The notes below the pieces were generated by a model. That model saw only the letters and a program-made list of their open reading frames with translations. It was not told the origin of the DNA and did not search any database. Positions 557 to 29,782 of a DNA stretch of 64,000 nucleotides are shown here, piece after piece. How positions within the stretch are numbered: the stretch's first letter is position 1; every line of letters begins with the position of its first letter. The DNA is from Clostridia bacterium (lineage in GTDB: Bacteria > Bacillota > Clostridia > TANB77 > CAG-465): contig JAZRSA010000050.1 in NCBI GenBank assembly GCA_045651205.1, positions 29,723-93,722 on the forward strand. The letters are read 5' to 3'. The position numbers and the translations under genes are program-made.

Positions 557-1279
557 TTATATCATTTCAATTAATGCATGTACCGTTTTATCGTCTTCGC
601 TTGTTATTACTATAATATGCTTATCATCTACATTTGCATATTTACATTTTACTATTTCGCCTAATTTTATTTCTTTTTTATATGTTATTCTAACATCGTT
701 AAATAGTCTTTTTTCATATACTTCATCTGGTAAAACTTCATACGCTAAATCTAAATAATAAAGATTATGCATATGCCCTATGAAATCTATATCTTTTCTT
801 CTTACAGTATACAATATTTCGTTTGTATATGTTTCAGGAATTTTTATTTTTTCTAATTCTTCTTCAAACACTCTATTTTCTGGTTCAGATTGATACTTAG
901 ATATCATTTCTTCATCTGGTTTTACTATGCTTCCTTTTTCTGTATTTATTAACAACCATTTAGATGTTCCAATTACACAAAGTTCGCCTTTAGAATTATA
1001 CATTTTGAAATCTCTACTTGCATAGTATTTTTCTATACTTGCAGACCAAGTATCTATTGTTAGTTCTTCACCATATTCTATTCTTTTTATAGATTTTATT
1101 TTCCATTCTAAAAGTATCCAAGATAAATGTGTTTCATTGCTATTATTTAATCCATAACCAAGGCTATCTGAATGATGTCCTGCTATGTTTTCAAAAAATT
1201 TAAGAATAGCTTTATTACCCAAAATATTGTCTTTTTCTATATCTTTTAATCCAATTTTAACCGTTTCCTTAAATATCAT
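557..1279 (-). CDS. Acyl-[acyl-carrier-protein] thioesterase (double hot-dog fold, FatA/B-like)
   Basis: 240 aa with two hot-dog-like halves. Motifs NIAGHHSDSLGY and IGHMHNLYYLDLAYE resemble the acyl-ACP thioesterase family. Lies downstream of fmt. Confidence 0.6.
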   Translation of the reverse strand: MIFKETVKIGLKDIEKDNILGNKAILKFFENIAGHHSDSLGYGLNNSNETHLSWILLEWKIKSIKRIEYGEELTIDTWSASIEKYYASRDFKMYNSKGELCVIGTSKWLLINTEKGSIVKPDEEMISKYQSEPENRVFEEELEKIKIPETYTNEILYTVRRKDIDFIGHMHNLYYLDLAYEVLPDEVYEKRLFNDVRITYKKEIKLGEIVKCKYANVDDKHIIVITSEDDKTVHALIEMI

Positions 1280-5099: not shown

Positions 5100-5660
5100 T
5101 TATCTACCCTCCCACTTGCCATATTCTTCAATTATTCTATTTGCTGCTTCTTCTGGAGTTAAATCTGACGTATCTATTACATAATCATAATTATCTAGAT
5201 CATGTATGTCTACATCATATAACTCTAAATATCTTTGTTTTTCCGACTCTTCACGAGCAAGTATTGCATCGTGAGCATCTTCTATAGATTCATACTTTTC
5301 TTCTTTTCCTCTGCTTTTAGAAGCCTCGAAAAGTCTTTTACTTGCAACATCTAGCGTAGATGTCATGTATACTTTAAATGCGTTAGGCGCAATATAGAAA
5401 CCAAGTCTTGCATCAATTATAATTTTATTGCTAGTTTCAACTTTAGCTTTTGTATTAAGCTCTACTTGTTTATCTATATCTGGATTTTTGTCTACATAGC
5501 GACTAAATTCCACTAAACTCATATTTTTTTGTCTAGCAAGTTCTCTAAATGATGTACTTGCTTTATAAAGTTCAAATCCTAGTTTATTTGCAACTATTTT
5601 TGCAACCTCAGTTTTCCCAACAGCTATATTTCCTGTTATACATATCATCTGTTTTTTCAT
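5100..5660 (-). CDS. P-loop NTPase, cytidylate-kinase-like family. Not guanylate kinase.
   Basis: N-terminal ICITGNIAVGKTEV (Walker A). Size and overall composition resemble cytidylate-kinase-like (AAA_18/Cytidylate_kin2) proteins. Sits between rpoZ and priA, where gmk/coaBC are usually found. Confidence 0.5.
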   Translation of the reverse strand: MKKQMICITGNIAVGKTEVAKIVANKLGFELYKASTSFRELARQKNMSLVEFSRYVDKNPDIDKQVELNTKAKVETSNKIIIDARLGFYIAPNAFKVYMTSTLDVASKRLFEASKSRGKEEKYESIEDAHDAILAREESEKQRYLELYDVDIHDLDNYDYVIDTSDLTPEEAANRIIEEYGKWEGR

Positions 5661-6099: not shown

Positions 6100-7827
6100 A
6101 TGGGTTATTCAAATTTGGAACACTTTAAAGAAACACTTAATGCTTCAGATTATTTTGTTGGCATAACCGAATCGTTAATAGATAAATTATTAGAATATGA
6201 ATATATTTCATCATTTAAATTATCTCATTATTTACGCAAACTAACAGATAATATTGCAGAATTAAGAATAGATACAAATAATCCTTATGAATACAAAACA
6301 GGATACTATGACGCAAACAAAAAAGAAATGTACATAAAAAGCACTAGAAATGTTTCTGCTACATATCTTCGTTTGTTATATGCGCTAACAACAACAGAAG
6401 TAGATAATAATGTATATGAATCAGGATATGCAACAACAAAACTATCTACAGAAAATTATAAACTATGTCATTATAATTTTGGTATAAACCGTGCTATAAT
6501 GTCTAATTTAGTATATAAACTTTGTAACTTATTACCTTCTTCTATACAAATATCAGAAATGCAACAAACAAGCACTCATAACTTTTTAGGCTTTAAAATA
6601 GAATCACAAAACGATATGTATTTCTTAGAAGGCAAAATTTTAAGTGAATTGTGTTATGTTTTAGATTTAGATCCAGAACTATTATATCGCGGACTATTTA
6701 CTAGACATCCAATGAAAGTTTTAAATAGAGCTTTTAGAAAGAAAAAATTCAAACGTTCTGACGATTTTCTAATTGTATTAGATGGCATTAGTAGAAAATA
6801 TTCTACATATAACAAACTTGTATTCTTATCTCAAAAACTAAACGAAAACTATGTAGAATACAAGAAAAATGTCTTAACAAGCGACGTTAATGATATAAAC
6901 AATGAGAAAGCTTTAATAGAACAAGAAATCGCAGATGTTTTAGCTAAATTCAAAAGGGATACTACCCCTAAAGAAATTGTTGAATCTGACGATGAAGCAA
7001 TTATTGAAGAAGATTTAGATGAAGTTCTAGACTATACTTCTAGCCTAGCTGAAACAATTCAAAAATTATATGATGATTTAAGAGAACAAATTATATATAT
7101 ACAAGATATATTAGCAGAACAACTTATAGAAAGTTCTAAAAATTTATCTTATACATTATATGCTAGCAAGCTAAAATGTTTTAACAATATATTAATTGTT
7201 CCTAATAAAAGGCTTTCAGATAAAATCGAAGAAATTATAACATTTAAGCTTATGCCAGAATCTGAAGTTACTGGTAGCAACCTAATAGATAAAATCAAAT
7301 ATGCTCTAATCGAACAAATACTTGCAGAAAAAGATTATTCGGATATCTCTAATACCTTCTCTTTCTACAATATAGATTCATTAGAAAACGCGGAAAACGG
7401 TTCTTGTTTAATTATATTAAATTATTCTAAACCGCCATCTAAAATATTAGAAGTTTCTGGTTTAGACGAATCAGGTCATAATTATACAATTACACCTATT
7501 CCTTTAGACAATTTAAGTCATATTATGAATACTGGTTATTCCACATTCTTTGTTGGTAACATTGAAAAACTATATACAGATTTAAAGAATAATTTTAAAA
7601 AGTTTTCTAATGTTCCATTAGACCAAATATATGTTTTTGAATATAACTCTAAAAAATATTTATTGTTACAAACAAACGGAATACCACATATAGTTGCTTT
7701 CTCTACACAAGAAGTACGCAACTTTGGCATTCAACCGTTATCTGAAAAATATAAAGTATTTGGCAAATCTGTTGTTAAGACTAAAAGCAAATCAACAACA
7801 ACTCTACCTACTTTATATAAAAAATAA
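6100..7827 (+). CDS. Hypothetical 575-aa soluble protein. No recognisable domain.
   Basis: Long ORF with RBS GGAGGA 6 nt upstream of the ATG. Host-like AT-rich codon usage. No TM segments, no Walker motif. Ends at a bidirectional terminator. Confidence 0.6.
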   Translation: MGYSNLEHFKETLNASDYFVGITESLIDKLLEYEYISSFKLSHYLRKLTDNIAELRIDTNNPYEYKTGYYDANKKEMYIKSTRNVSATYLRLLYALTTTEVDNNVYESGYATTKLSTENYKLCHYNFGINRAIMSNLVYKLCNLLPSSIQISEMQQTSTHNFLGFKIESQNDMYFLEGKILSELCYVLDLDPELLYRGLFTRHPMKVLNRAFRKKKFKRSDDFLIVLDGISRKYSTYNKLVFLSQKLNENYVEYKKNVLTSDVNDINNEKALIEQEIADVLAKFKRDTTPKEIVESDDEAIIEEDLDEVLDYTSSLAETIQKLYDDLREQIIYIQDILAEQLIESSKNLSYTLYASKLKCFNNILIVPNKRLSDKIEEIITFKLMPESEVTGSNLIDKIKYALIEQILAEKDYSDISNTFSFYNIDSLENAENGSCLIILNYSKPPSKILEVSGLDESGHNYTITPIPLDNLSHIMNTGYSTFFVGNIEKLYTDLKNNFKKFSNVPLDQIYVFEYNSKKYLLLQTNGIPHIVAFSTQEVRNFGIQPLSEKYKVFGKSVVKTKSKSTTTLPTLYKK

Positions 7828-7835
7828 TAAAAGCA

Positions 7836-7861
7836 AAGAAGAGCGAAATATCGCTCTTCTT
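7836..7861. terminator. Bidirectional rho-independent terminator shared by convergent genes
   Basis: 11-bp stem aagaagagcga / tcgctcttctt with loop aata. T-runs on both strands. Confidence 0.7.
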
Positions 7862-7872
7862 TATTTGTGTAT

Positions 7873-8613
7873 TTAAATTGCTGCACACATTATCACTGTG
7901 TCTCGGCAGATTTTTTTGATGATACATTTTACATCATTGTAATAAACAGTATCACCATTTGCTACGACCGTTCCTTCGGGTCTTGGGATTTTTCTTTTGC
8001 CTCTGTTGTCATATACAGAAACATGTTTGTCAAATGCTAGCACACACTGCTTGCCCACCATTTTTGCAGGCAATTCAATGTCTTCTTTCTTATCTTCGAC
8101 TTCGTTGTTAATCGGAACTATTACAGGTCCATCATTAGTTTTAGATGCTAACCCTTTAATATGTTCGTCGATTTCAGCATATGCTGCAACTCTTGCTCTT
8201 GCTACAGGAAAAAGTTCTGTTTCAAGTTCCTTGAGTCTTGCTTTGAAATTCTGATCTCTATCGCAGGTAACAAGGCGTACAGTGTAACCTTTATCGTGGT
8301 ACTTTTCTACCGTATATACGACTTGTTCATCAACTGCCCAGCTACGAATTTCATTCGTTGCAACCTCTACGCGAAGTCTTGGATTTCGGACATTACCTTC
8401 AATGAACTTATAAATTTCTTTACAGTTTTCATTGTTTCTTCTGCCCACACTTATCTCGTGGCTCACTCCTTCCGGTATAATGAGGGTTACATCACCCTGC
8501 TGTAAGGTTTGCTTAAAAAGTTCAAAGTGGTTGCTAAGTGCAGACGTATCCCACACTTCATACTTACCTGCCCGTCTTCTGAACAGACTTAAAATAAATC
8601 TAATAGCTGCCAT
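7873..8613 (-). CDS. PIN-domain (putative ribonuclease) protein with a ~110-aa C-terminal extension. Atypical higher GC.
   Basis: N-terminal YEVWDTSAL, then LIIPEGVSHEI and LVTCDRDQNF, place Asp/Glu/Asp in the order of the PIN catalytic residues. Local G+C is visibly higher than the flanks. Confidence 0.5.
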   Translation of the reverse strand: MAAIRFILSLFRRRAGKYEVWDTSALSNHFELFKQTLQQGDVTLIIPEGVSHEISVGRRNNENCKEIYKFIEGNVRNPRLRVEVATNEIRSWAVDEQVVYTVEKYHDKGYTVRLVTCDRDQNFKARLKELETELFPVARARVAAYAEIDEHIKGLASKTNDGPVIVPINNEVEDKKEDIELPAKMVGKQCVLAFDKHVSVYDNRGKRKIPRPEGTVVANGDTVYYNDVKCIIKKICRDTVIMCAAI

Positions 8614-8756
8614 GGTTCTTTTTTTACTCCTTTTTTTAAATTTAGTTAAATTTTAAATAAACGCACGACTACAAATATATTGTAACACTTTTATGATGTT
8701 ATGTCAAGTTTTGAGCAGCTTTTACATTGTTACTGCGTATTTTTTATTCTTTCCCG

Positions 8757-9566: not shown

Positions 9567-9594
9567 AAGGAAACAAGCTTATGCTTGTTTCCTT
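9567..9594. terminator. Rho-independent terminator (12-bp stem aaggaaacaagc / gcttgtttcctt plus T-run). The stop codon of the convergent 9579..10031 ORF lies in its loop.
   Basis: Hairpin read directly, followed by TTTTTCT. Confidence 0.7.
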
Positions 9595-10031
9595 TTTTCT
9601 TCCCTATACTCTTTTGCACTTATGAGTTCACTTGTATTCATATAGTAATCATGATTTGCTATAACATCTTCTATTCTACTTCTAATATCTACAATATCAT
9701 AACAATTAATTATATATCCATTAAAGTTATTTACCGCTAAGAATTTATTGACATTCGAAACAAATTTTTCATTCCCATGTACTACAAATACAAACTCCTC
9801 TTCTTCATAATTATTTAATATATTCTCATTAAGCCACTCACTATAATACATTCTTTCTTCTATCCTTTTATAGAATTTAGATATTATACTTTTTACTTTT
9901 TTAGTTTCATTCTTTTCATTAATATATATAATCTTTACATTATCCAAATTATTAGATATATAATTATTTGCAATTATACACGCATGTGTTGTATTTACTG
10001 TAAAACAACATAATTTCTTTTTCATTTGCAT
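9579..10031 (-). CDS. Hypothetical 150-aa protein
   Basis: ORF with GAGAGG RBS-like sequence upstream and host-like codon usage. No recognisable motif. Confidence 0.4.
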   Translation of the reverse strand: MQMKKKLCCFTVNTTHACIIANNYISNNLDNVKIIYINEKNETKKVKSIISKFYKRIEERMYYSEWLNENILNNYEEEEFVFVVHGNEKFVSNVNKFLAVNNFNGYIINCYDIVDIRSRIEDVIANHDYYMNTSELISAKEYREEKRKQA

Positions 10032-10129: not shown

Positions 10130-10145
10130 TTTTTAGGTGAAACTT

Positions 10146-10697
10146 ATGAAAAAATTCAAATGTACATTATATATATTTATATTCCTTTTTACATTACTTA
10201 ATTTAAATCTAATACACGCTATAACTGATGCAAAAAACAATTTAGCCAATTATTTTAGATTACATGTTGTAGCTAATAGCGACAATATTAATGATCAAAT
10301 GATAAAATTAAAAGTAGCTAACGAAATTAATAAATACATATCTGTTATTACAAAAAATATTACCAACAAAACTGATTGTATAAAAACAATAGAAAACCAT
10401 ATTCCAAACATCCTAAACATATCTAAAAACGTTCTTAAGAAAAACAATTCTTCTACTCAAGTAGTCGCATATATTGGAAATATTAAATATGATGAAAAAG
10501 AATTTAATAAAGAAACTATGGCTGCTGGTACATATACATCTTTAAAGATTAGTATTGGTGAGGCTAAAGGAACTAATTGGTGGTCATTAATATCTCCTAC
10601 TATTTCTGATACTACAAATGTAAATGATATATTAGAACCTGGCGAAATAAAAATAAAATCTAAAATATTAGAATGGATAGAAGTATTATTTAAATAA
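10146..10697 (+). CDS. spoIIR: Stage II sporulation protein R (SpoIIR family)
   Basis: Signal peptide followed by FRLHVVANSDNINDQ (the SpoIIR hallmark is ...RLHV.ANSD...). Start chosen at ATG 10146 (RBS AGGTGA) rather than GTG 10137. Confidence 0.7.
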   Translation: MKKFKCTLYIFIFLFTLLNLNLIHAITDAKNNLANYFRLHVVANSDNINDQMIKLKVANEINKYISVITKNITNKTDCIKTIENHIPNILNISKNVLKKNNSSTQVVAYIGNIKYDEKEFNKETMAAGTYTSLKISIGEAKGTNWWSLISPTISDTTNVNDILEPGEIKIKSKILEWIEVLFK

Positions 10698-10743: not shown

Positions 10744-13350
10744 TTATACGCTATATAGCATTTCTCTTAATACTCCATAATACATTAAACTTTGTGTTGT
10801 TCCTTCACCACCGTTTTCTGGTGTTGTCGGAGTTTCTGGTGTTGTTGGTGTTTCTGGCGTAGTTGGAGTTTCCGGTGTTGTTCCTGGATTCTCTGGTGTT
10901 ACTGGATTGTTTGGAACCACAACATCTTCTGGAATTTCCGGTTCTTCAACTACTGGAGCACTTGTATGTAACTCACAAGTTTTTGTTGGTGCTATATATT
11001 TCTTATCGCTTGTCTTTGTATTTGGTTTTTCTCTAGTTATTGTAGAGATTTCTACTAATTCTTCATATAAATGGCAGAATTCTGTAGGCAATAGTTTAGA
11101 TGTATTACATACTTTTACTAAACTATGAACTGTACATTCTGCAGTTGGCACTGTGCCTGATGCAAACACTTCAGATTTTACTACATTTCTTTGATCCGCT
11201 TTACAAGCATCTGTAGCAACTAAACCAGATAATGTACATACAGTTGCTTTCACTATTCCTTTAGGTTTAGTAAACGAAGCTGCTTTAAGATTTTTATGAA
11301 TTGTTTTCATAACGTTTGTCCAAACAACTGTTGCTGTATATGGATAAGTTCCTAATGTTTTTCTAGAACCTATTGTTTTTGGATTATCGTAACCATTCCA
11401 TACAACTGCTGTATAGTATGGTGTATATCCTGCAAACCATTGGTCTTTATCATCATTTGTGTTACCAGTTTTAGCTGCTATTTGTATCTTTGTAGAGAAT
11501 TTAGCAGATGTACCTGTACCACTTGAAACAACGCTTCTTAAACAATCTGTTAGCATATATGCAGTTGTTTCGCTCATTACTTTAGTAAATTTAACTTCAT
11601 TAGTTAATATTTCTTTACCATCATGATCTAAAACTTTTGTATATAATTTAGGTTCTGTATAAACACCACCATTTGCCATAGTAGCATATGCTGCTGCCAT
11701 ATCTATAACTTTAACGTTAGCTGAACCTAATGCTAAAGATAAATTCTTATTTGCCTTTTCTGTTAATGTTGTTATTCCCATGCTTTGAGCAAATCTTAAA
11801 GCATAACCTAAATCTATAGATTTTAGTGTCTTAACTGCTGGTATATTCATTGATTGATTTATTGCTTCTCTTACAGAAACATAACCATAATAATATCCAT
11901 ACCAGTTAGTTGGTTTATATCCACCAAAGTTTACTGGAACGTCATCTATACCCATACCTGGATAAGATACTCCTAGTTCAAAAGCTGGTCCATACGCTGC
12001 TATTGGTTTAAATGTTGAACCTGGTTGCAATTTAGATTCTGTTGCTCTATTATAGTCTAATCCTGTTTTTTCTCCAACACCACCAAGCATACCTACAACG
12101 TTACCTGTTTTGTTATCTAGAACAATCATAGCACATTGCATCATACCTTTTTTCTTGTCATTGTAGAAATATTTTTCATTTTTAGCTTGTTTATCTATAG
12201 ATGCTTGTACTGTTGGATCTATTGTTGCATAAATAGTATATCCATTTGAGGCAACCATATCTCTAGCCGCTTGATATGTAATATTCATTGCTTCAGCTAG
12301 ATCTTCAGCAACGGCTTTCCATACAGCGTCTCTTGCATAAGATTGAACTGCTGATGTTGAAGCTATTTCACCTTTTTTAAATACTAATTCATATTCTAAA
12401 GCTTCGTCATATTGTTCCTTAGTTATTTTACTAATAGATAGCATTTTGTTTAATACTACTTTTTGTCTCTCGATTAATTTTTCCTTATTCTTTTCTCCAT
12501 TATATGGATTTGTTACTTCAGGTAATTGTATAGATGCTGCAAGACATGCAGACTCTGCTAGGTTAAGGTCAGCTACTGTTTTCGCGAAGAAAGTTTGTGC
12601 TGCCATTTCTATACCGTTAGCACCTTCACCAAAGTATATCTTATTTAAATATGCTTCTATAATATCTTCTTTTTCAAGGTTTTGTTCAAGCATTATTGAA
12701 CGATACCATTCTCTTATTTTTCTCTTCCAACTACCTTCATTATCTTCAGTTATGTTTTTAACTAACTGTTGAGTAATTGTACTTCCACCAAATGATGATG
12801 AACCACCATTTGTTACGAATGTAAGTACAGCAGCTGCTGTTCTTTTAATATCTACACCAAAGTGTGTCCAGAATCTTTCATCTTCAATTGCTACTACAGC
12901 ATCTACTAAATGTTTAGGTAATTCTTCATAATCTGCCATAAGTCTATTTTCACCTGAGTTTACAGTTCCTAGCTGATTACCTTTACTATCTAATATAGTA
13001 GTTGTAAGTTTAAGATTTTTAAGTTGAGAATAATCTACTGTTGATGTTTCGCTTATTATATCGTTTAAAACATATAATACTACTCCACAACCTATCACAA
13101 ACAATGCTAAGCCTATAAAGAATAGCACCTTAAAAATTTTCCAAAATAGCTTTTTCTTTTTCTTAGGTTTTTCACCATTTGTTTCTTTTTTATTCTTTTT
13201 ACCCTTATTTGCTTTCTTCTCTAATTTAGCTTTTTTCTTTTCTTCTTTTTCTTTTATTTTATCTTTATCTAATTTAACTCTTTTAAATTTTACTTTTCCA
13301 TTTTCGGGTCTAATTAGATTGTCCATTTCTTTATCTGACAACATTATCAC
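10744..13350 (-). CDS. Class A penicillin-binding protein (bifunctional transglycosylase/transpeptidase, PBP1A-type) with Lys-rich N-terminus and C-terminal TPETPTTPE linker
   Basis: 868 aa. Glycosyltransferase motifs (EDERFWTHFGVD, GGSTITQQL), transpeptidase motifs STFKP and KTG. PT-repeat tail. Confidence 0.9.
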   Translation of the reverse strand: MIMLSDKEMDNLIRPENGKVKFKRVKLDKDKIKEKEEKKKAKLEKKANKGKKNKKETNGEKPKKKKKLFWKIFKVLFFIGLALFVIGCGVVLYVLNDIISETSTVDYSQLKNLKLTTTILDSKGNQLGTVNSGENRLMADYEELPKHLVDAVVAIEDERFWTHFGVDIKRTAAAVLTFVTNGGSSSFGGSTITQQLVKNITEDNEGSWKRKIREWYRSIMLEQNLEKEDIIEAYLNKIYFGEGANGIEMAAQTFFAKTVADLNLAESACLAASIQLPEVTNPYNGEKNKEKLIERQKVVLNKMLSISKITKEQYDEALEYELVFKKGEIASTSAVQSYARDAVWKAVAEDLAEAMNITYQAARDMVASNGYTIYATIDPTVQASIDKQAKNEKYFYNDKKKGMMQCAMIVLDNKTGNVVGMLGGVGEKTGLDYNRATESKLQPGSTFKPIAAYGPAFELGVSYPGMGIDDVPVNFGGYKPTNWYGYYYGYVSVREAINQSMNIPAVKTLKSIDLGYALRFAQSMGITTLTEKANKNLSLALGSANVKVIDMAAAYATMANGGVYTEPKLYTKVLDHDGKEILTNEVKFTKVMSETTAYMLTDCLRSVVSSGTGTSAKFSTKIQIAAKTGNTNDDKDQWFAGYTPYYTAVVWNGYDNPKTIGSRKTLGTYPYTATVVWTNVMKTIHKNLKAASFTKPKGIVKATVCTLSGLVATDACKADQRNVVKSEVFASGTVPTAECTVHSLVKVCNTSKLLPTEFCHLYEELVEISTITREKPNTKTSDKKYIAPTKTCELHTSAPVVEEPEIPEDVVVPNNPVTPENPGTTPETPTTPETPTTPETPTTPENGGEGTTQSLMYYGVLREMLYSV

Positions 13351-20230: not shown

Positions 20231-20467
20231 TTACTTAGTTATTGTAATTGTAGTTGCAAAGCATAATACTACGAATGCAATTCCTAAATATATAGTTAAT
20301 TTAGATAATACTCCATCTAAAGTCTTTCCTTTATTTGCACCATAGAATGTATTTCCTAATGCTGCTGAAGCTCCGTCTTTAGAACTTTGCATCATTACTA
20401 CAATTGTTAATGCAACTGCTACTATTAATGTTAATGCTATGCATATCCATGCAATCCATCCAATCAT
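20231..20467 (-). CDS. secG: Preprotein translocase subunit SecG
   Basis: MIGWIAWICIALTLIVAV... is typical of SecG. Start placed at the internal ATG, which is preceded by GGAGGGAATAAA. secG-rnr adjacency is conserved in Firmicutes. Confidence 0.8.
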   Translation of the reverse strand: MIGWIAWICIALTLIVAVALTIVVMMQSSKDGASAALGNTFYGANKGKTLDGVLSKLTIYLGIAFVVLCFATTITITK

Positions 20468-20580
20468 TTTATTCCCTCCAGTTTGTATTTTTAACACAAA
20501 GATTATACCATACATATATATAATTTACAACAAAAGAAATAAAAAGTTTGCCCGTTTTTTCAAATTTTTTAATATTTTTG

Positions 20581-20609
20581 TTGACATTAACATACAATTA
20601 TATTATACT
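20581..20609 (+). promoter_or_regulatory. Sigma-A-type promoter (TTGACA-17-TATACT) for tRNA-fMet
   Basis: Hexamers read directly. Lies 12 nt upstream of the tRNA 5' end. Confidence 0.5.
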
Positions 20610-20621
20610 AATAACATGCAT

Positions 20622-20697
20622 CGCGGGGTAGAGCAGTCGGCAGCTCGTCGGGCTCATAACCCGAAGGTCACAGGTTCAAGTCCTGTCCCCGCAACCA
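20622..20697 (+). tRNA. Initiator tRNA-fMet (anticodon CAT), CCA-encoded
   Basis: Cloverleaf folded by hand. Acceptor CGCGGGG/CCCCGCA with a C1:A72 mismatch. Anticodon stem ends in three G-C pairs (GGG/CCC). Loop CTCATAA, T-loop TTCAAGT, 3' ACCA. Confidence 0.9.
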
Positions 20698-20704
20698 TAT
20701 TAAA

Positions 20705-20730
20705 AAGAAGAGTGAATAATCACTCTTCTT
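20705..20730. terminator. Bidirectional terminator after tRNA-fMet (stem aagaagagtga / tcactcttctt plus TTTTTTG)
   Basis: Read directly. Also terminates the convergent 20737..21621 gene. Confidence 0.75.
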
Positions 20731-20736
20731 TTTTGT

Positions 20737-21621
20737 TTATTTGTTTTCTACTGCTTCAACAACTTCTTTTTTATTTTTTCCTTTAAAGTGTGGCATTTTA
20801 GGTTTTATTTCATTTACTGATATAGTTACACCAAATATTAGTTTTACAACCCATAACATTATAAACAACACTCCCATTGGTATTACACATGATGTAATTA
20901 GTAATATTGCTAACGCATTCATAAAGTTGCTTAATAAATCTTTACCTTTTTCTAGCAGTTTTTCTACAGAATTCCCAACACTAGAAACAACATTAGAAAC
21001 TGTACCTGTTATCTTGTCCCATAAGTTTGTTTCAGTTTTTTCATCCTCTTTTTCTTCAACTTTGTTATTTTGAACATCCGTAGCACTTTCAATAGTTTTA
21101 GATATTGTAGTACCATATGTGTCTTCAATAAACATACTTAGTTTCACACTAACTGGCACTATTGTAAATATAACAAGTCCAAATGCCGCCAATTTAAATG
21201 CTAAAACTTTTAACTTTTCTTTCTTTGTAAATAAATAAGTTGCACATAACACACATGCTGCTGGTATTAAAATCAAGAATGTTAATTTACCAGTAAGTGT
21301 AAGCAATATCTTTTCTAAAAATATTACTCCTAACACAATTAACAAGTATCCACTCATATCCATAAGTTGGTTTGCTATTGGTGTCGTTGCATCTCCAGGC
21401 GCTGCTGCAAGTATTGTCGCCGCTCCCGCTGTTGCTGCAGTAAGTCCAATAACTTGTCCTTCTTTTTTATTTAAGTGCTCAATAGATCCGTTATGGAATT
21501 CCGGTTCACCAAAAACTTTAGCCAAAGGGAACATTGATACTACTGCTAATATAATCAATCCTATTGCAACACCTATTTTAATTAATATTTCCTTATTGTT
21601 CATAAAAAACTCTTTGTTCAT
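20737..21621 (-). CDS. Hypothetical integral membrane protein
   Basis: 294 aa with multiple TM helices and an Ala/Gly/Thr-rich segment (GLTAATAGAATILAAAPGDATTP). No known motif recognised. Confidence 0.4.
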   Translation of the reverse strand: MNKEFFMNNKEILIKIGVAIGLIILAVVSMFPLAKVFGEPEFHNGSIEHLNKKEGQVIGLTAATAGAATILAAAPGDATTPIANQLMDMSGYLLIVLGVIFLEKILLTLTGKLTFLILIPAACVLCATYLFTKKEKLKVLAFKLAAFGLVIFTIVPVSVKLSMFIEDTYGTTISKTIESATDVQNNKVEEKEDEKTETNLWDKITGTVSNVVSSVGNSVEKLLEKGKDLLSNFMNALAILLITSCVIPMGVLFIMLWVVKLIFGVTISVNEIKPKMPHFKGKNKKEVVEAVENK

Positions 21622-24734: not shown

Positions 24735-24811
24735 TGGTAGCGGCGATTGGAATCGAACCAATGACCTTTCGGGTATGAACCGAACGCTCTAGCCATCTAA
24801 GCTACGCCGCC
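24735..24811 (-). tRNA. Elongator tRNA-Met (anticodon CAT)
   Basis: Reverse complement reads GGCGGCGTAGCTTAGATGGCTAGAGCGTTCGGTTCATACCCGAAAGGTCATTGGTTCGATTCCAATCGCCGCTACCA. Standard cloverleaf. Close to Firmicutes elongator tRNA-Met. A tRNA-Ile2 (lysidine) identity is not fully excluded. Confidence 0.85.
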
Positions 24812-27750: not shown

Positions 27751-27799
27751 AGTCGTTGAAAATATTTTTAAACTCAAAGGAGTGAGTATAAAAAGTTTA

Positions 27800-27955
27800 A
27801 GAATATTAGCGCATGGTTTTGCTATTTTAGCAAATTGACGAGGATGATAGTTATCGACACATCAGCGGGTGCTATCACGGTTTAATGGGATCGACATATA
27901 GGTACAAAAGGTAAAATTCAGGAATTACTACAAAAAGCCTATAATCCAAAAGTAC
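27800..27955 (+). ncRNA. glmS ribozyme: glmS ribozyme (GlcN6P-responsive self-cleaving riboswitch) in the glmS 5' leader
   Basis: Ribozyme core elements AGCGC ... TTGACGAGGATG ... TTATCGA ... CAGCGGGTGC ... CGG and downstream P3/P4-like region match the Bacillus glmS ribozyme in order and spacing. Immediately upstream of glmS. Confidence 0.75.
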
Positions 27956-27985: not shown

Positions 27986-29782
27986 ATGTGCGGAATTATA
28001 GGATACGCTTCAAAGAATTTAGATTCTTGTAGCGTTGCATTGTCATGCTTAAAAAACTTAGAATACAGAGGTTATGATTCCTCTGGTGTCGCTACTAGCG
28101 AACAGGGAAAAATCAATATGTATAAAGCGCAAGGAAAAATCGCTAATCTAGAAGATAAAATCAAATACAATGATATATTTGCTTCTACTGCTATTGCGCA
28201 TACAAGATGGGCTACACACGGAGAGCCAAGTGAGACTAACGCTCACCCACACAAAGTTGGGCACGTTACATTAGTGCATAACGGAATCATCGAAAACTAC
28301 TCAGATATTAAACAAGATTTATTATCTAAAGGAATGAATTTTGTTTCTGAAACAGATTCTGAAGTTGCATGTGGATACATTAATTATATGTATGAAAAAA
28401 CTGGAGATAAAATGGCAAGTATAAAAGCCGCTTGTGATGAATTTAGAGGTTCTTATGCTCTACCAATTATCTTTGACGATGAGCCAAATACAATTTATTC
28501 TGTTAGAAAAAACAGTCCATTAATTGTAGGTCTTAGCGATAACGGAAACTTTGTATCTTCTGACGTTTCTGCAATACTTAATTATACAAATAAGTATATG
28601 CTATTAGATAACGATGAATATGTTAAGGTTACAAACGATTCAGTTGAGATATTTGACTCTAATCTTAATAAAATAGATAAAGCAGTAGATACAGCTACTT
28701 GGAGTGCTGTGGAATACCAAAAGAATGGTTATGACCACTTCATGTTAAAAGAAATCTATGAACAACCTAAAGTTGTTAAAAACATATTAGGCAAGTTCTA
28801 TGATGATATAGACTTCACAAAATACGATAATATACACATCGTTGCTTGTGGTAGTGCTATGCATGCTGGTATGGTTGCTAAATACCTTTTAGAAAACAAC
28901 GCTAAAATTAGAACTACAGTAGAAATTGCATCTGAATACAGATACAAAGAAAATCTAATTACACCTTCTACTCTAGTTATAATAATATCTCAATCTGGTG
29001 AAACTGCAGATACATTAGCTGCACTACGTTTAGCAAAAGAACAAGGTGCATATGTTTTAGCTATTGTTAATGTTGTTGGTTCTTCTATCGCTCGTGAAGC
29101 AGATAAAACAATATACACTTATGCAGGTCCAGAAATAGCTGTTGCTACAACTAAAGGATATTCTTCACAAGTTGCTACATTAACAAACGTAGCTCTTACA
29201 ATAATGAAACAAAAAGGATTATTACAAGATTCTGTAATGGATGCATTCTATGAAGATGTAGAAAAAATAGAAACACTTGCAGAAGATTTAATTAATTCTA
29301 GAGATATGTATAAAGCTATAGCAAACAAGTTATATACTCACGAAAATGTATTATACATTGGTCGTGGCATAGATAGTGCAAGTTGTATGGAAGGTTCTCT
29401 AAAACTTAAAGAAATCTCTTACATACACTCAGAAGCGTATGCAGCAGGCGAATTAAAACACGGTACAATATCACTTGTAGATCAAGGAACACCTGTTATA
29501 ACTATCGCTACAGTAGACAATCTATATGAAAAAACAATAAGCAATCTAAAAGAAACAAAAGCTCGTGGGGCTTATACCCTACTAATAACTACAGAAAACC
29601 AAAATGTAGAAAATATAAAAGACTCATTAGATGATGTAATTATTCTACCTAAACTTTCTGAATTTTTACAATCACTACTTGTAGTTATTGTTCTTCAATT
29701 AATTGCTTACGAAACAGCTATACTAAGAGGCGCAGATATAGACAAACCTAAAAATCTTGCTAAATCTGTTACTGTTGAATAA
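27986..29782 (+). CDS. glmS: Glutamine--fructose-6-phosphate aminotransferase (isomerising)
   Basis: N-terminal MCGIIGY (Cys2 nucleophile), two SIS domains, C-terminal ...KPKNLAKSVTVE. Confidence 0.95.
   Translation: MCGIIGYASKNLDSCSVALSCLKNLEYRGYDSSGVATSEQGKINMYKAQGKIANLEDKIKYNDIFASTAIAHTRWATHGEPSETNAHPHKVGHVTLVHNGIIENYSDIKQDLLSKGMNFVSETDSEVACGYINYMYEKTGDKMASIKAACDEFRGSYALPIIFDDEPNTIYSVRKNSPLIVGLSDNGNFVSSDVSAILNYTNKYMLLDNDEYVKVTNDSVEIFDSNLNKIDKAVDTATWSAVEYQKNGYDHFMLKEIYEQPKVVKNILGKFYDDIDFTKYDNIHIVACGSAMHAGMVAKYLLENNAKIRTTVEIASEYRYKENLITPSTLVIIISQSGETADTLAALRLAKEQGAYVLAIVNVVGSSIAREADKTIYTYAGPEIAVATTKGYSSQVATLTNVALTIMKQKGLLQDSVMDAFYEDVEKIETLAEDLINSRDMYKAIANKLYTHENVLYIGRGIDSASCMEGSLKLKEISYIHSEAYAAGELKHGTISLVDQGTPVITIATVDNLYEKTISNLKETKARGAYTLLITTENQNVENIKDSLDDVIILPKLSEFLQSLLVVIVLQLIAYETAILRGADIDKPKNLAKSVTVE

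Follow-up and report, generated by a model that had tools for sequence, protein, structure and literature searches.

The question raised by this locus is whether a gene that stands out from its surroundings by its base composition, and that encodes a PIN-domain protein with an uncharacterised C-terminal part, is a foreign toxin or defence effector or a resident gene for RNA processing or decay. The gene occupies positions 7873..8613 (minus strand) of a 64,000-nucleotide stretch of Clostridia bacterium DNA (GenBank assembly GCA_045651205.1, contig JAZRSA010000050.1, positions 29,723 to 93,722), referred to below as the window. An earlier note, made from the nucleotide sequence, had recognised in it the acidic residues of a PIN nuclease and had taken its elevated G+C content (GC) as a sign of horizontal origin.

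The gene was found to be vertically inherited in one lineage of uncultured, spore-forming gut Clostridia, and its product is a PIN_4 protein by profile score, fold and catalytic residues. The best explanation, which we hold with roughly even confidence, is that it is a lineage-specific, metal-dependent PIN_4 endoribonuclease whose C-terminal domain (C-domain) would serve as an independent targeting or partner-binding module. The PIN_4 domain (SMG6/PhoH2-type) would act as a Mg2+/Mn2+-dependent endonuclease, most likely cutting RNA; a predicted disordered linker of ~40 residues would tether this catalytic domain to a small, basic, all-beta domain, and the latter would recruit the nuclease to what it acts on, be it RNA, a protein or a ribonucleoprotein. 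The gene itself is monocistronic, has a conserved consensus sigma-A promoter and behaves as a stable component of the chromosome of the clade. RNA is the likely substrate because the characterised enzymes of the PIN_4 group (SMG6, PhoH2) cleave single-stranded RNA (PMC5499597), and the nearest structures of the PIN fold are those of the RNA endonucleases Dis3, SMG6, Utp24 and the YacL-type proteins 3i8o/3ix7. Three elements of this explanation are inferred: that the substrate is RNA, that the C-domain has a targeting role, and that the protein has a housekeeping-like function and not one in conflict.

Domain Organization of the Protein and Identity of the PIN Domain

The open reading frame (ORF) begins with ATG and encodes 246 amino acids (aa) plus a stop codon. 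The following parts were distinguished (pLDDT, predicted local distance difference test; pI, isoelectric point; A1, the family alignment):

7873..8613, minus strand: complete coding sequence of the PIN_4 nuclease, linker and novel C-terminal domain (ORF list, 28 full-length homologues, alignment A1)
8566..8613, minus strand: N-terminal hydrophobic/basic helix, residues 1–16, MAAIRFILSLFRRRAG, pI 12 (A1 pattern, AlphaFold)
8209..8565, minus strand: PIN_4 nuclease domain, residues 17–135 (Pfam, AlphaFold pLDDT, Foldseek, invariant columns)
8086..8208, minus strand: variable, predicted-disordered linker, residues 136–176 (pLDDT 41–57; length and sequence variation in A1)
7876..8085, minus strand: C-terminal all-beta domain of seven strands, residues 177–246 (model of the domain alone, stand-alone homologues)

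The AlphaFold model of the whole protein, built on the family alignment, had a mean pLDDT of 79. The N-terminal pattern M.II.FIK.LFR..KG was kept across the alignment, with a helix at residues 2–15 (pLDDT 70–77), and residues 17–135 were confidently modelled as an alpha/beta domain (pLDDT 84–93). The PIN_4 profile (PF13638) matched residues 20–133 over positions 2–129 of its 132, with a score of 29.2 bits (E = 1.3e-6; gathering cutoff, 21.9); the same profile was matched by 21 of the 26 aligned family members (best E = 9e-10), and no other PIN family was matched. Searches with the whole protein gave nothing in NCBIfam, PADLOC or the PDB sequences and only insignificant matches in PHROGs. The acidic pattern read by the earlier note in WDTSAL, IIPEGVSHE and LVTCDRD was thus confirmed both by the Pfam score and by conservation, since every one of the 26 sequences has D22 (WDTSAL), E48/E53 (IPEGVSHE), D95-E96-Q97 (VDEQ) and D118/D120 (CDRD), as well as H52, R90, W92, C117 and Q121.

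The model displays the three-layer alpha/beta/alpha PIN fold, and the sequence has the four conserved acidic residues (D22, E53, D95 and D118) of the metal-binding active site. Comparison of the PIN part with PDB structures using Foldseek returned Dis3/Rrp44, an archaeal PIN-ATPase, SMG6, SMG5, AF0591, 3i8o/3ix7 and Utp24 (E = 1.6e-6 to 1e-3), with a probability of 1.0 for the PIN domains of Dis3, SMG6, AF0591, 3i8o, 3ix7 and Utp24. No second copy of either domain was found elsewhere in the window. Since the catalytic residues are invariant in all aligned members and the whole gene is under purifying selection (see below), the nuclease is considered functional in the lineage of the window.

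Comparison with Known PIN Proteins

The protein shares its Pfam family and fold with the PIN_4/COG1875 group, namely, SMG6, SMG5, Swt1 and the PIN domain of bacterial PhoH2. Judging from motif order and from the SMG5 alignment, its four-acidic site D22/E53/D95/D118 would correspond to D1251/E1282/D1353/D1392 of SMG6, and the order of the motifs is alike ('DTxxL', 'IPxxVxxEL', 'D(D/E)xI(L/V)', 'LVTxDxxxxxKA'). However, sequence similarity to solved members is marginal (SMG5 PIN, E = 0.35), the protein carries no PhoH ATPase, 14-3-3/TPR or other partner domain, and the family has a signature of its own (E48, H52, R90, W92, Q97, C117, D120, Q121) in addition to the novel C-terminal domain. It is not a PhoH2 protein because it has no ATPase domain: no PhoH or AAA match was found in the 246 aa, and the archaeal PIN-ATPase 5f4h aligns by its PIN part only.

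The YacL-type PIN-TRAM proteins (COG4956; 3ix7, 3i8o), which are widespread and of unknown function, likewise consist of a PIN domain followed by a small beta-rich C-terminal module; both they and the window protein are chromosomal, monocistronic or housekeeping-like, and without an antitoxin, and the two kinds of PIN domain resemble each other in structure (Foldseek E = 2e-5 to 3e-4). Nevertheless, the lack of both a TRAM domain and transmembrane helices excludes the window protein from the YacL PIN-TRAM proteins: no Pfam match to TRAM (PF01938) and no TRAM structure among the Foldseek matches were obtained, and a single 16-residue helix precedes PIN strand beta-1 in place of the four N-terminal transmembrane helices of YacL. 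Moreover, the PIN domain of YacL belongs to PF01850 and that of the window protein to PIN_4, and YacL is near-universal in Firmicutes, whereas the present family has a tiny distribution.

VapC toxins share the PIN fold and the conserved acidic site with the window protein, and VapC11, VapC15 and VapC2 were among the weaker Foldseek matches (E about 0.005–0.01). In contrast to them, the window protein has no PF01850 match, no adjacent VapB and no bicistronic organization; it is twice the size, has an extra domain, and is encoded in a fixed syntenic slot behind a constitutive-type promoter. VapBC modules are patchy or mobile and often multicopy, whereas the PIN gene is present in a single copy in the window and in the same slot in all relatives; it is not a VapBC module, since it has no antitoxin and is not mobile. 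Fused toxin–antitoxin defence proteins of the CapRel(SJ46) type have a patchy distribution, their genes being carried by prophages or defence islands. As in these proteins, an enzymatic domain that would target RNA stands at the N-terminus of the window protein, and the same chain ends in a small domain that may be a cis regulator or sensor; the enzymatic folds, however, are unrelated, and the window gene is neither patchy nor encoded in a prophage or defence island. Dis3 (PIN plus S1/CSD) and Nob1 are architectural parallels. Thus, within PIN_4 the protein represents a divergent branch whose accessory domain has not been described before and which is limited to a narrow clade of gut Clostridia.

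C-Terminal Domain and Variants of the Family

The strands of the C-domain span residues 178–244 and were modelled with a pLDDT of 83–87 in the full-length protein and of 89.6 when the domain was modelled alone; its motif is GK..(x)..VYD.RGKRKI...D.vYY. The domain had no match in Pfam (even at E ≤ 10), NCBIfam, PHROGs, PADLOC or the PDB sequence-profile search, and Foldseek found no significant neighbour of its fold in PDB (best E = 0.25) or BFVD (best E = 0.12), in agreement with the earlier note, which had called it uncharacterised. The best fold matches were FHA-like (E = 0.25–1.5, template modelling score 0.41–0.48); the domain was not assigned to FHA because the FHA signature motifs were not evident by eye.

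The initial homologue search returned only 28 proteins, all of ~245 aa and all from uncultured samples, the sole name given by a source being 'hypothetical protein [Clostridia bacterium]'. A profile search of 1.84 billion cluster representatives extended the family to 47 proteins, ~30 of them full-length, all from uncultured Clostridia. In four distant relatives (P0054, P0055, P0058 and P0059), the CDRDQ motif is replaced by CNHNM, CRCDM, CNHNQ and SNHSQ, which suggests that the nuclease has been inactivated in some lineages. In addition, stand-alone C-domain proteins of ~80 aa, forming at least nine clusters, can be aligned along the full C-domain and have in common the motif GK..Y...G..VYD.(R/K)GKR(K/R)IGK...D.v.Y...Y.V.

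The genomic context of stand-alone C-domains was informative in one contig only, L019 (732 nt; NODE_350438, ERZ28436078), where gene 190–441 encodes the 83-aa protein P0060. The same conserved promoter as that of the PIN gene lies upstream (about 44–72), and the convergent tail of a gene resembling the 575-aa neighbour of the PIN gene lies downstream (562–657, minus strand). The C-domain alone therefore occupies the slot of the PIN gene, and it is an autonomous module whose function does not need the nuclease. Further contexts were sought with the C-domain alignment profile, which gave nothing, with P0060 as a query, which returned only itself, and with a hand-made degenerate DNA motif, whose 50 matches were all due to chance.

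Gene Position and Vertical Inheritance

The signals flanking the gene are as follows:

8679..8707, minus strand: sigma-A-type promoter TTGACA-17-TACAAT with an extended -10 TG (consensus scan, 11/12 matches plus TG)
8627..8633, minus strand: ribosome-binding site AAAGGAG, 13 nt upstream of the ATG, a spacing above the usual (read from the sequence)
7835..7862, both strands: bidirectional intrinsic terminator hairpin with a 12–13 bp stem, common to the convergent 575-aa gene (terminator scan)

With its own promoter and terminator, and with no same-strand ORF of at least 40 aa in either flank according to the window ORF list, the PIN gene is monocistronic; the absence of an adjacent antitoxin-sized partner, as had been noted earlier, was thereby upheld. 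The 187-bp divergent intergenic region contains the promoter TTGACATAA-N17-TG-TA(C/A)AATATA, which is identical in all seven aligned loci.

The slot is defined by a ttcA-like gene divergent from the PIN gene and the 575-aa gene convergent with it, near spoIIR/PBP1 (a class A penicillin-binding protein, PBP) and rpoZ/priA. On contigs carrying relatives with 80, 54, 51, 50, 39 and 38% identity, the PIN gene was in the same place in every case. It was divergent from the PP-loop/TtcA-like gene and close to a conserved 150-aa gene, spoIIR and the class A PBP gene on all contigs examined, and on most of them it was convergent with a gene of ~570 aa, followed by rpoZ, a cytidylate-kinase-like gene, priA, def and fmt. 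Five GTDB species representatives (metagenome-assembled genomes from sheep rectum and other hosts) carry the same gene.

The earlier note had concluded from the GC difference that the gene was of horizontal origin, and this conclusion was not borne out. Recent acquisition, in which the high GC and odd codons would be the un-ameliorated signature of a foreign donor, draws on the fact that the PIN gene is the strongest compositional outlier among the 50 ORFs of the window, but is scarcely credible in view of its evolutionary setting. The position of the gene and its promoter are retained in 12 independent assemblies that span 36–100% protein identity, and among seven closely related genomes the ttcA gene (84–95% identity) and the PIN gene (36–80% at the protein level) recover the same three groups. 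Relatives were detected neither by tblastn in 50,697 phage and 72,556 plasmid records nor by a pattern scan among the viruses of IMG/VR. The gene has no flanking repeats, and no homologues were found outside the clade that could act as donors. The codon evidence described below also speaks against a foreign donor. The PIN gene is under purifying selection: its ratio of nonsynonymous to synonymous substitution rates (dN/dS) was 0.04–0.09, compared with 0.02–0.05 for ttcA and 0.03–0.11 for the 575-aa gene; positive or diversifying selection on the PIN gene was rejected on the basis of these values.

Base Composition and Codon Usage

The GC of the PIN gene was 0.394 against a mean of 0.302 for the 50 window ORFs (z = 2.9, rank 1), and its GC at third codon positions (GC3) was 0.320 against 0.174 (z = 3.7, rank 1). 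The exact per-gene calculation of GC and codon usage bore out, and exceeded, the rough hand count made earlier, in which the value in the upper-20s% given for the neighbours was roughly right (0.267 and 0.305; intergenic GC, 0.269). The gene contains 74 G/C-ending codons compared with 32.4 expected from window usage (z = 8), and ACC, ACG, CAG, ATC, GTC and CTC are used in it 5–25 times more than elsewhere. A leave-one-out index similar to the codon adaptation index was 0.442 versus 0.700 ± 0.043 (z = −6.0), and rare codons made up 17.8% versus 5.1% ± 1.8% (z = +7). With background codon choice, the amino acids of the PIN protein would give a GC of 0.329; approximately one-third of the excess thus stems from amino acid composition and two-thirds from codon choice.

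The PIN gene ranked first in GC3 in all six orthologous neighbourhoods, with an excess of +0.20 in the subclade of the window that decreased to +0.05 in the most distant relatives; the five GTDB orthologues had a GC3 of 0.36–0.42. Between the window and the orthologous locus L004, codon identity at conserved residues was 0.42 versus 0.44 expected by chance, which corresponds to synonymous saturation, and G/C-ending codons coincided 16 times versus 15.6 expected, although both genes have a GC3 near 0.3–0.37. Since the GC3 excess has outlasted the saturation of synonymous sites, with G/C-ending codons now at different positions in the orthologues, it is being maintained as a feature of the gene itself and cannot be read as a foreign signature that has yet to ameliorate.

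Several causes of this property were considered and set aside. An embedded RNA or overlapping element found no counterpart in Rfam in this region (E ≤ 1), and synonymous sites are less conserved in the PIN gene than in its neighbours. The mRNA of the PIN gene folds more stably than dinucleotide shuffles (z = −3.6) and synonymous-codon permutations (z = −3.5), and the orthologous mRNAs gave z = −1.9 to −4.5 against synonymous permutations. This folding is not special, because 15 control genes of the window range as far (from +1.5 to −5.0, mean z about −2), and selection of G/C third positions by mRNA structure was rejected. It should be noted that the native coding sequences of the control genes generally fold more stably than their synonymous permutations, the lowest value (z = −5.0) belonging to the cytidylate-kinase-like gene (5100–5660); this general tendency of the genome has to be borne in mind whenever the folding z-score of one gene is judged. 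A high-expression codon bias was rejected because the enriched codons ACG, ACC, CAG, GTC, GTG, CTC and CGN are almost unused by the other genes, rpoZ included. Deeper coalescence or allelic replacement was also discarded, as the chance-corrected residual synonymous similarity of 0.16 is within the range of the neighbours (0.13–0.31). The avoidance of self-cleavage by the nuclease is weakened as a cause by a single data point, the stand-alone C-domain gene of L019, which has no PIN part and has an equally high GC3 of 0.369. The excess may stem from selection (for slow translation or for rare codons), from GC-biased gene conversion or from some other process. For genome scans, the case advises caution: the strongest GC and codon outlier of the window is not horizontally acquired, and one gene by itself can keep an unusual composition stably while being inherited vertically.

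Proposed Function and Alternative Explanations

Among the functions that had been proposed for the protein in the earlier note, RNA processing or decay appears to fit better, whereas a toxin or defence-island effector is disfavoured by the lack of a PADLOC match, the core-like slot and the constitutive-type promoter. A defence-island setting, for which the earlier note had suggested a check, was not found: no PADLOC-DB 2.0 family was matched (E ≤ 1), and the neighbours are the ttcA-like gene, spoIIR, PBP1, rpoZ, priA, def and fmt. If the lineage-specific endoribonuclease is the right reading, a lineage-restricted RNase and a new accessory domain join the poorly understood non-toxin PIN proteins of bacteria. 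Several observations weigh against this reading, however. The C-domain is only mildly basic (pI 8.8) and shows likeness to no known RNA-binding fold among those in PDB and BFVD. With 47 of 1.84 billion cluster representatives, the family is too narrow to be a general housekeeping enzyme; the PIN-less relatives and those with dead motifs indicate that nuclease activity is dispensable in some lineages, and such a pattern of decay is also typical of toxins. Finally, the PIN protein evolves 4–8 times faster than the adjacent ttcA product, and the rare-codon bias could reflect selection limiting the output of a harmful enzyme.

The latter points are shared by the main rival, which we rate as unlikely, namely, that the protein is an autoinhibited toxin-like nuclease, either a fused toxin–antitoxin or a single-gene effector of defence or stress, in which the C-domain would restrain the PIN domain or sense a trigger (a phage or stress signal) and rare codons would keep the protein level low. 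Since no separate antitoxin is present, any inhibition of such a toxin would act in cis. No fold is commoner among toxins than PIN, and toxins of toxin–antitoxin systems occur in the bacterial PIN_4 group (PMC5499597); the rapid divergence, the strongly de-optimised codon usage and the decay states (catalytic motifs that are dead, C-domain genes left on their own in the slot) would also be expected of a toxin. Nevertheless, all relatives carry the gene at one fixed, core-like place in the chromosome and not in a variable island, and it is transcribed from a conserved consensus promoter without an obvious operator. Purifying selection on it is comparable to that on its neighbours, relatives are missing from the phage, plasmid and viral sequences searched as well as from PADLOC, and the stand-alone C-domain gene keeps its high GC3 with no nuclease to restrain. 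A related two-module system is a decidedly doubtful proposal: the novel 70-residue beta-domain family, which occurs solo in some gut Clostridia, would here be the cis regulator or sensor of a self-inhibited PIN RNase fixed in the chromosome, and selection would keep translation low via rare G/C-ending codons through a complete turnover of synonymous sites. If true, it would add a new domain and, besides, one of the few clear examples of a bacterial gene whose codons selection has kept de-optimised over a long time.

The roles of the two domains could also be reversed, the C-domain being the conserved functional unit (a small regulatory or structural protein) and the PIN domain an accessory fusion gained or lost in sublineages, so that the main role would be non-nucleolytic. 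The stand-alone C-domain proteins are approximately as diverse as the more distant members of the fusion family, L019 has the C-domain alone with the same slot, promoter and GC3 signature, and the PIN catalytic residues are degenerate in several relatives; yet the catalytic and about a dozen further PIN residues are invariant in 26 of 26 full-length members, and purifying selection extends over the whole gene, which makes this reversal distinctly unlikely. A PIN-like or FEN-like nuclease acting on DNA in repair or recombination, with no RNase activity, is quite improbable. The PIN-like superfamily does include DNA flap nucleases (PMC5499597), and the gene lies a few kilobases from priA, but by Pfam and by fold the protein matches the PIN_4/VapC-like RNA-endonuclease branch and not the FEN/5'-3' exonuclease families, and the monocistronic gene shares no operon with DNA-repair genes. 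The preferred PIN_4 endoribonuclease would bear on no long-standing question, and its practical impact would be modest, since the family occurs only in a few uncultured Clostridia of the ruminant gut; of most interest are the rare-codon/GC3 signature, which has been stably maintained, and the C-domain as an autonomous family.

Neighbouring Genes and Other Elements of the Window

The 575-aa gene (6100–7827, plus strand), convergent with the PIN gene, had no match in Pfam or NCBIfam. Its product measures 563–576 aa in most orthologous loci, and the gene is also found beside the L019 C-domain gene; a functional link to the PIN/C-domain gene is possible. It is not at that position in L007 and L008, and a 559-aa gene in L007, considered as a relocated copy of this neighbour, showed no similarity to it. 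On the other side of the PIN gene, a conserved 150-aa protein without a significant Pfam match (9579–10031, minus strand) is always encoded between the ttcA-like gene and spoIIR in the orthologous loci.

The spoIIR gene (10137–10697, plus strand) had 48% identity between the window and L001, compared with 88–97% for neighbouring genes; its dN/dS of 0.24–0.31 is far above that of any neighbour, and it has the second-highest GC3 in several loci. SpoIIR is thus an unusually fast-evolving sporulation signalling protein. The adjacent class A PBP gene (10744–13350, minus strand) contains tandem 18-nt repeats at 10814–10914, which encode a low-complexity C-terminal tail of the TPETPT type and cause a local GC bump adjoining the region of interest.

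Further along the window, an ordinary glmS ribozyme/riboswitch (Rfam RF00234, 67 bits) was identified at 27797–27953 (plus strand), upstream of the ORF at 27986–29782. Two tRNA-Met (CAT) genes are located at 20622–20697 (plus strand) and 24735–24811 (minus strand). The ORF at 20439–20786 (plus strand), which has the second-highest GC3 (0.30) in the ORF table, overlaps the first of them and is probably not a gene.

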